From Eledone cirrhosa (Eukaryota), in assembly GCA_964016885.1 (NCBI GenBank), contig OZ024743.1:357120001-357184000 (forward strand): 64,000 bases of DNA, in the 5' to 3' direction. The position numbers were made by a program, and so were the translations under genes. Position 1 is the first letter of the stretch. Every line of letters starts with the position of its first letter. Positions 29,248-31,199 of the stretch are shown here, one piece after another. The notes under the pieces are model-generated. The model did not search any database and had not been told where the DNA came from. It saw only the letters and a program-made list of their open reading frames with translations.

Positions 29248-29786
29248 TATATATATATATATGTTTGTGTGCGTGTATCTGAGTATCTATATTTGTTTAT
29301 GTCACGTAACCTAGCGGCTCAATGAAAGGAGATCGATAAATTAAAAACCAAAGACTCGTTATGATAGACTAAAATCCTATCATGATGTCGCTCTACAAAG
29401 AATTATACATTAATATATATATATATATATATATATATATATATATATATATATATATATATATACATACATACATATATATATATATATATATATATAT
29501 ATATATATATATATATATATATATATATATATATATATATATATACATACATATATATATATATATATATATATATATATATATATATATATATATATAT
29601 ACATACATATATATATATATATATATATACATACATATATATATATATATATATATATATATATATATATATATAGACATAGAATTTCTGCCGGACCGGC
29701 AACCGCTCTTTCAAACCAGTTCCTGTACACAGCTAAGTATTCTATAAGTCTCTAGCTGTGTCATTCTCGATAAAAGCACTGGATAT

Positions 29787-29829
29787 GTAGTCCTGATGAT
29801 TTCTAACAAGAATGAAACGCGTAGATTAC
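29787..29829 (+). ncRNA. Minimal hammerhead (family L, unit 1)
   Basis: GUAGUC-CUGAUGA-u-UUCU-aaca-AGAA-u-GAAA-CGCG-UA|GAUUAC; stem I extended by 16-bp helix 29763-29778/29836-29851. Confidence 0.88.
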
Positions 29830-30096
29830 TTCCCTTGCTTTTATCGAGAATCTAATTGTAATACGTGACGTATTCTATTCTATAGCGATTAGGTCTTCAA
29901 AATGTTTATTATAAACATACAGAATATTTTCGAATATTCTATGTCTATATTCACATATATATCGCTATTTCAGAGCATTTATTCCAATTTCTAATTTCTG
30001 CCGGACCGGCAACCGCTCTTTCAAACCAGTTCCTGTACACAGCTAAGTATTCTATAAGTCTCTAGCTGTGTCATTCTCGATAAAAGCACTGGATAT

Positions 30097-30139
30097 GTAG
30101 TCCTGATGATTTCTAACAAGAATGAAACGCGTAGATTAC
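30097..30139 (+). ncRNA. Minimal hammerhead (family L, unit 2)
   Basis: Identical copy 310 nt downstream. Confidence 0.88.
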
Positions 30140-31199
30140 TTCCCTTGCTTTTATCGAGAATCTAATTGTAATACGTGACGTATTCTATTCTATAGCGATT
30201 AGGTCTTCAAAATGTTTATTATAAACATACAGAATATTTTCGAATATTCTATGTCTATATTCACATATATATCGCTATTTCAGAGCATTTATTCCAATTT
30301 ATATATATATATATATATATATATATATATATATATATACATACATATATATATATATATATATATACATACATATATATATATATATATATATATATAT
30401 ATATATATATATATATATATATATATATATATATATATATATATATATACATACATATATATATATATATATATATATATATATATATACAAACATACAA
30501 TTCTAGAACTATTTCAGTATTGATTACAGCTAATGTTTGTTTCTTTACCGTTCTCCTATCATTACCACCATCATTACCAGCTGTTTCCCTTTCCATCACC
30601 ACCAACAGCATCAGTTGCCTTCCCTCCCATACCCACAACTATTACTGCCACCATCACCGCTACCACTACCATCACCACCAGCGCTACCACCGTTACTACC
30701 ACCATTACTACCACTATCAACAGACTAATTAGGAATCCAATCTATCGACCAAAGTATCATCTGTATCTGGTTTACACCCATCCCATCCCACTCAGATAAC
30801 ACGATATGCTTACAATCTCTCTCTCTCTCACCCTCTCTCTCTCTCTCTCTCTCTCTCTCTCTCTCTCTCTCTCTCTCACCATTTTACCATCTTCTACATC
30901 TCTCCTCTCTATTTATCCCACACCTTACATTCCACACTTTAAATGTCCGTCTCCCCTATATATTTTTTACCGCTCTTCTTTCTTTCTTTCTTTCGCATAC
31001 ACACACTCTTTCTCTCTCTCCCTCACTCTCACCCACTCACACATACACACTTTCTCTTTCTCTCACTTTCACACACACGCTCTCCCCCATTCTTTGTATT
31101 ACCTTTAGTTATCATCACTTTCTCCCCCGCCCCAACTTTTCTCTATTTCACACAGTAAAACTAACTACCTGTGTGCTGAATTATGAATTAACACTAAAT

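Follow-up and report, generated by a model that had tools for sequence, protein, structure and literature searches.

Introduction

The systems closest to the element described here are the non-LTR retrozymes of animals and the Penelope-like elements (PLEs). For metazoan type I hammerhead ribozymes, PMC4209133 describes a canonical form with a helix I of 6 bp, a helix II of 4 bp and a short palindromic helix III that is active as a dimer, as well as a minimal form found in PLEs with a long helix II, a short helix I and G10.1-C11.1. A small palindromic helix III is, according to the same source, also present in some PLEs. The axolotl ribozyme HHR_Amex2 is reported in PMC7229834 to carry a U.U at the base of stem II, to cleave better as a dimer and to make circles. 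In a recent preprint, in vitro cleavage is given for 1/9 Xenopus retrozyme dimers tested.

PLE insertions are recognized by an inverted 5' copy, an optional tail of 30-40 bp and a bias towards (TA)n (10.1101/2021.04.23.441226; PMC3846280). In the experiments of PMC11167929, a lizard PLE was purified and shown to nick AT-rich DNA on both strands. It starts reverse transcription at two internal sites, which define the tail. Uncut RNA was its main template, and hammerhead mutants did not impair insertion in vitro. For Octopus vulgaris, 31 recently active Penelope-like families are listed in PMC13282606, the main text of which nowhere uses the word ribozyme.

So far, the enzyme that mobilises animal retrozymes and the nature of its template, a circle or an uncut linear multimer, have been argued from co-occurrence and homology. 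A probably young 310-nt family with PLE junction marks is thus a good test case for both PLE mobilisation and the template question. Here, we describe such a candidate within a 64,000-nt stretch of Eledone cirrhosa DNA, i.e., the whole stretch that was analysed, in the following called the window.

Results

Anatomy of the tandem repeat

Tandem Repeats Finder (TRF) reports a repeat at 29683-30300 with period 310, 2.0 copies and 100% match. That is, the 308-nt run 29683-29990 equals 29993-30300 letter for letter, and the seam between the two runs carries an extra CT. TRF and self-comparison define two units on the plus strand, namely unit 1 at 29683-29992 (310 nt, 34% G+C, non-coding) and unit 2 at 29993-30300 (308 nt, same letters as unit 1). 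With 310 bp present twice and 34% G+C, the unit is within the range of retrozymes (about 150-450 bp, G+C below 50%). TRF furthermore places a (TA)n tract on the left of the target at 29413-29675 (period 2, 131.5 copies) and another one on its right at 30301-30489. The first-pass annotation had described identical units spaced by 310 bp from position 29673 on. Identity and period hold; the start has to be shifted to 29683, and what surrounds the former boundary (29671-29685) is a separate inverted piece outside the repeat proper.

Coding capacity is low. Around the unit circle, the longest ATG-initiated open reading frame (ORF) encodes 30 aa on the plus and 17 aa on the minus strand, and no Pfam match was found for 29886-30062. 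Rolling-circle translation of the 310-nt unit was considered and rejected.

Hammerhead ribozymes

Each unit contains a predicted type I hammerhead on the plus strand. The first, at 29781-29833 with a predicted cut after 29823, is based on a core search, an Rfam alignment and a covaried relative at 22620, while the second, at 30091-30143 with a predicted cut after 30133, is its copy shifted by 310. Within hammerhead 1, stem I is formed by 29787-29792 and 29824-29829 (6 bp), the core is found at 29793, GAAA at 29814-29817, and a GUA triplet immediately precedes the predicted cut. Stem II consists of a U.U plus 3 bp and is closed by a 6-nt loop 2; stem III has 2 bp inside the palindrome ACGCGU. 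Beyond stem I follow a UAU bulge, a 3-bp stem Ib (GGA/UCC) and finally a 16-bp helix.

With a custom descriptor, 14 hammerhead cores are detected in the 64-kb window and none on the minus strand of the unit; 60 shuffled windows yield 0.017 cores on average. The Rfam family HH9 is matched below threshold (19.2 bits at a gathering score of 52, E 0.013 on a 161-nt stretch), and its alignment puts core and loops in the right places despite the weak score. The top Rfam matches near the locus were discarded as AT-repeat or hairpin artefacts. The layout agrees with the earlier call of a complete hammerhead per unit cutting after 29823 and 30133, where the cuts themselves are predictions. It had also been labelled 'minimal', which does not fit a 6-bp helix I and a short helix II with U.U. 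Judged by these motifs, the ribozyme is of the canonical retrozyme type, unlike the minimal type of PLEs. The ACGCGU palindrome is in line with the proposal that a palindromic loop III would suit cleavage as a dimer.

Folding of the 310-nt monomer

The predicted cut-to-cut monomer, i.e., the candidate circle, covers 29824-30133 (plus strand). When folded as a linear molecule its z-score is -4.4, a value matched by 0/100 shuffles; as a circle, with 60% of its positions paired, it reaches -4.5 (0/200 shuffles). The computed folds thereby favour the structured monomer of 310 nt that was suggested in the first pass. Two further elements of that suggestion were found again on the plus strand. One is the 16-bp helix 29763-29778/29836-29851 (spanning 29763-29851), which extends stem I of the hammerhead and is predicted to pair the monomer ends. 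The other is a hairpin upstream of it at 29727-29761, present in minimum-energy and centroid folds.

In the dimer, the pair probability within the 16-bp helix is at least 0.97 for 5/6 sampled pairs and 0.52 for the remaining one. Stem II reaches only 0.13-0.16 in the dimer ensemble, and a penalty of about 7 kcal/mol applies when stems I and II are imposed and the core is kept open, both computed with ViennaRNA, i.e., without tertiary contacts. A 2-nt loop III and a dimeric hammerhead are beyond ViennaRNA's scoring, such that only the isolated ACGCGU palindrome duplex was computed, for which -9.5 kcal/mol is obtained.

Insertion footprint

The junctions of the dimer, which the first-pass annotation does not mention, resemble those of PLE insertions. 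On the left, a 15-nt inverted piece at 29671-29685 (minus strand) repeats unit positions 29936-29950 in reverse-complement form. Of its letters, the first 5 might be part of the TA tract, and the last 3 already lie within unit 1. A match of at least 15 nt of this kind was observed in 2/20,000 unit shuffles, a post hoc statistic for a single junction. On the right, a PLE-like 3' tail is found at 30261-30300 (plus strand), which extends 40 nt past the end of the inverted piece and 28 nt past the commonest (TA)n-joined end among the contigs of run X2 (see below). Any target-site duplication of more than 4 bp would be masked by the (TA)n target.

We also inspected 7 other head-to-head regions of the window. 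An exact mirror plus tail is present in 3 of them (tails of 79, 76 and 34 nt), one is without tail and 3 are without exact mirror. Tails of up to 76-79 nt are longer than the usual 30-40 bp. Such tails are located at 20572-20650, 28684-28759, about 5120-5200 and about 23170-23236, and by eye they resemble one another around a GAGTAC-like motif. Remnants of a PLE reverse transcriptase (RT) or of a GIY-YIG domain were found neither adjoining the unit nor among the 61 window ORFs scanned; 2 motif-scan hits to PLE frames (204 window frames) were judged spurious.

A second family and other hammerhead loci

A second element at 22452-22977 (plus strand) is composed of (TA)n, an inverted piece, a unit with a hammerhead and its predicted cut after 22650, a terminal repeat and again (TA)n. 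Its unit starts with an initiator-like motif, and a 17-nt terminal repeat follows at period 486, which includes an inner (TA)20. This layout supersedes a 315-nt reading with a 10-nt terminal repeat. The inverted piece has a score of 51, reached by 0/489 random window stretches. Given the junctions of the 310-nt dimer and the same layout in this second family, the dimer was likely placed into (TA)n by PLE enzymes that acted in trans.

When comparing the hammerhead at 22620 with that of the 310-nt unit, stems I, II and III differ in letters with pairing retained, and the UAU bulge, loop 2, U.U and GUA are the same. Such covariation of three stems between families with pairing kept argues for selection on the ribozyme fold. 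Outside the ribozyme, the units of both families align no better than shuffles. By its sequence features, the element at 22452-22977 is probably another retrozyme family.

More hammerhead families are found at 2640/2770, 4871, 6856, 8485, 20509/20523, 27843/27932, 28412, 29132, 23595, 35579, 36090/36195 and 58653. Many of them are arranged head-to-head beside (TA)n, and most have a palindromic stem III. PLE-like ends are overall very dense within the 64-kb window. In addition, a near-perfect inverted repeat of 59 bp without a hammerhead core directly follows (TA)n at 28564-28686, with similar arrangements at 23020-23165 and 58904-59012.

The family in other sequencing runs

Public runs were queried with the permuted unit 29745-30054, such that both the cut site and the seam are interior, using 26 sampled words. 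Between 73 and 100% of the query words are contained in 20 public runs, which stem from 16 studies and carry 17 organism labels. None of the matching runs is recorded as RNA, i.e., they have no bearing on expression. We examined contigs from 3 of the 20 runs (X1, X2, X3) plus the raw reads of a further run (X21).

X2, for which the library type is unrecorded and which perhaps has the same source as the window, provides 594 contigs, 359 of which are at least 99% alike. Its summed contig depth, which is not to be read as copy number, is 454,600 at the seam and thus inside the range of 328,000-638,000 observed for the bins 29767 to 30019; that is, there is no dip. The only variant at 5% or more is A29808G within loop 2, without any indel at that level and without a common variant in the hammerhead core or stems. 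Among the 6 ends listed of 26, (TA)n is joined behind 29962 (9 contigs) and 29993 (1 contig) as well as before 29853 and 29924 (1 contig each). The listed pieces have depths from 15 to 3,950, which suggests many copies without giving a copy count. Many dispersed copies with a common seam are hence supported by the 594 contigs and their several (TA)n-joined ends, where copy number is inferred. One further X2 contig of depth 2.65 shows a joint exactly from the predicted cut at 29823 to 29869, with 5 other letters in between; it may be noise, or else the trace of template switching to a cleaved end.

X1 and X3 each contain one 340-nt contig, i.e., the 310-nt cycle plus overlap, with 0 differences and depths of 12 and 10, respectively. 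Both bridge the seam by more than 31 nt per side and have arbitrary break points, no branch and no flanks. The window copy has the same letters as this closed cycle. Short-read contigs collapse tandem arrays, and a closed contig is equally expected from a tandem array or a circle. As the contigs of X1 and X3 run across the seam and the depth of X2 does not dip there, we consider the seam a property of the family rather than a local accident. None of the 12.8 million reads of the Hi-C run X21, which shares study and label with one matching run, matches the unit, which is not a valid test.

Comparison of the unit with viral contigs, metagenome contigs, prokaryote genomes, plasmids and phages yielded no match; there is thus no sign in these collections of a vector or microbial origin. 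The 17 organism labels may be explained by close relatives, by low-level carry-over between libraries or by a circle common to the hosts, of which carry-over is the likeliest. An invariant, flankless cycle at a depth of about 10 is the pattern expected when the commonest words are carried over.

Candidate promoter

A candidate internal promoter spans 29866-29997 (plus strand), comprising TGACGT at 29866, a TATA-like run at 29956 and initiator-like A's at 29986 and 29993, all of which are consensus matches only. Position 29993 corresponds to the start of this insertion (29683 + 310). That is, the first letter of the dimer is an initiator-like A, for which the preceding unit would provide the TATA-like run 37 nt upstream; the distance is 30 nt for the neighbouring initiator. 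An initiator start is only suggestive since such motifs are common (10 per unit, with 3 TATA-initiator pairs). The promoter call is also weak given that the sole dissected Penelope promoter is TATA-less, as described in PMC2377424. Neither an A nor a B box of Pol III was found in the unit, and its T4 runs speak against Pol III. A bacterial promoter scan gave chance-level results and is not relevant here.

TGACGT is present at 22683, 29866 and 30176, i.e., 33 and 43 nt past the cut in the two canonical units. TGACG occurs within 150 nt in 2/12 cut sites checked, and the background is about 0.03 per 310 nt. The motif is a possible candidate for a common promoter or protein-binding site.

Other elements in the window

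An apparently intact LINE with two ORFs (715 and 1195 aa from stop to stop; APE endonuclease, RT, zf-RVT) is located at 13064-18666 and is, by its domains, probably L1/Tx1-like. Its frame at 15247-18666 is intact and the endonuclease is of APE type. Among named relatives of its protein, the nearest are from Argonauta hians (58%, covering 45% of the query) and, for a short stretch only, a gene model of Octopus sinensis (64%, covering 5%), in line with an octopod host. Two short protein matches to this LINE are labelled E. coli, which is compatible with mislabelling elsewhere. A fragment of another LINE-like frame, with a weak DUF6451 match, is found at 62907-63353 on the minus strand. Finally, there is a 185-bp tandem dimer (95% identical) at 38534-38900, which we presume to resemble a common octopus SINE.

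Discussion

Interpretation and proposed mechanism

We interpret the two-unit 310-nt repeat as a likely young, many-copy animal non-LTR retrozyme that was likely inserted by PLE enzymes in trans into (TA)n, a reading to which we assign a probability of roughly 0.7. On every testable feature, the element is an animal non-LTR retrozyme as far as its sequence can tell. The retrozyme identity proposed in the first-pass annotation is thereby supported by unit size, a hammerhead per unit, self-pairing and dispersed copies.

The following course of events would be consistent with the junctions. Multimeric loci would be transcribed as more-than-unit RNA from a Pol II promoter located close to the unit seam. 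A PLE endonuclease would nick (TA)n, and both target ends would prime reverse transcription within the RNA. One start, at the far end of the tail, would proceed over 618 nt to the 5' end, while the other, roughly 40 nt upstream of the first within the unit, would cover only about 10 nt. Both products would then be joined head to head through a 3-nt microhomology.

For the RNA itself, two hammerheads are predicted to cut at GUA as a dimer that is paired via the ACGCGU palindrome. The ends of the released 310-nt monomer would be held by the long helix and closed by a host ligase of RtcB type, and the single hammerhead within the circle is predicted to be a poor cutter. Multimers may be regenerated from circles, or when a copy inserts into the (AT)4 run of the unit itself. 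With the predicted promoter near the seam, the dimer's own transcript would hold the second hammerhead alone; for such a one-hammerhead transcript, a 310-nt monomer would need upstream read-through or a locus of at least 3 units.

Alternative readings

The main alternative concerns the template. What was copied, according to the first-pass annotation and the published model alike, is the 310-nt circle, i.e., the reverse transcriptase rounded it twice and halted near its own start. We hold this to be possible at somewhat less than even odds. Measured from its 3' end, the copy falls 2 nt short of two full units, for which the chance is 5/310 given a random end, and the seam is fixed across runs without an indel at 5% or more; the X2 contig joined exactly at 29823 points weakly in the same direction. 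On the other hand, the copy of the second family ends 17 nt past one round but also begins at an initiator-like motif, the dimer's 5' end is the initiator-like A with its TATA-like run, and the lizard PLE mainly copied uncut RNA (PMC11167929). Since initiator-like 5' ends and uncut RNA as PLE template tilt the balance slightly to a linear transcript, we regard an uncut linear multimer as the slightly more likely template of this particular copy. A related question is whether the hammerhead, intact in its letters, is effectively silent, such that the family would have spread as uncut RNA with few or no circles. Stems II and III are weak in the computed folds, 8/9 frog dimers remained uncleaved in the recent preprint, and insertion by the lizard PLE in vitro was unimpaired by hammerhead mutants (PMC11167929). 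We nevertheless deem silence unlikely: the families covary while core and loop-loop letters stay, X2 is free of common core or stem variants, and for the axolotl variant with U.U, dimer cleavage and circles are reported in PMC7229834.

It is rather improbable that the repeat is a mere end repeat (pLTR) of an autonomous PLE, i.e., a 5'-truncated partial tandem without a retrozyme life of its own. Such an origin would share the type of footprint (inverted 5' piece, 30-40-bp tail, (TA)n target), the window is rich in short hammerhead-bearing PLE-like ends, and retrozymes and pLTRs are described as related in the recent preprint. However, the units begin at the same letter, their seam is common to other runs, X1 and X3 provide a closed cycle without branches, the hammerhead is canonical instead of minimal, and no RT or GIY-YIG remnant is among the 61 ORFs scanned. 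The share of X2 contigs that continue into unlike sequence is 0, a weak argument as contigs break at branches. Highly improbable, in our view, is an independent viroid-like agent, namely a 310-nt circle that moves between animal species and integrates only sometimes via PLE enzymes. Behind this idea are the 20 runs under 17 labels and the invariant closed cycle without flanks in X1 and X3 (2/3 examined). We give hardly any credence to a local tandem duplication or an assembly artefact between two microsatellites, which the first-pass annotation had named as the outcome that would overturn its reading. It is suggested by the 100% identity and the long (TA)n on both flanks; yet the seam recurs in X1 and X3, shows no dip in X2, and is accompanied by other insertion ends, and an inverted piece plus tail are not products of duplication.

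Comparison with known systems

With the metazoan non-LTR retrozymes of PMC7229834, the 310-nt element has in common a tandem non-coding unit of 150-450 bp with G+C below 50%, a canonical type I hammerhead per unit and a self-paired monomer. As described there, axolotl Amex1 likewise has a weak palindromic helix III, and Amex2 shares the U.U at the base of helix II. In contrast, the host is an octopod here and the mollusc of that study is a mussel, an explicit PLE junction footprint is present here, and our element is known from DNA sequence alone.

Endonuclease-bearing PLEs and their pLTRs, as described in PMC11167929 and PMC4209133, share with the dimer an AT-rich or (TA)n target and an inverted 5' piece; the optional 30-40-bp tail, partial tandems and a type I hammerhead are further common features (PMC3846280; 10.1101/2021.04.23.441226). 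Unlike them, the 310-nt unit is without an RT or GIY-YIG frame, has a canonical rather than a minimal hammerhead and closes on itself. Viroids and viroid-like circular RNAs (as covered in PMC8781251) are alike in size, self-pairing and hammerhead. A viroid-like RNA would carry ribozymes on both of its strands and lack a copy in genomic DNA, whereas here a genomic DNA copy with transposon junctions carries the hammerhead on one strand only.

The literature covered, at the level of main texts, reports neither a cephalopod retrozyme nor PLE tails on retrozymes; with the 310-nt element, the range of retrozymes thus appears to include cephalopods. By the working definition of Li, Clavereau and Pollet 2026 (10.64898/2026.07.22.740005), the dimer qualifies as a putatively active retrozyme, with two units in a row that each hold a complete hammerhead. 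The dimer also backs the PLE link proposed in that work. The evidence given there is co-occurrence and pLTR homology within 35 genomes (31 vertebrates, 3 insects, 1 coral), while here it is provided by insertion junctions.
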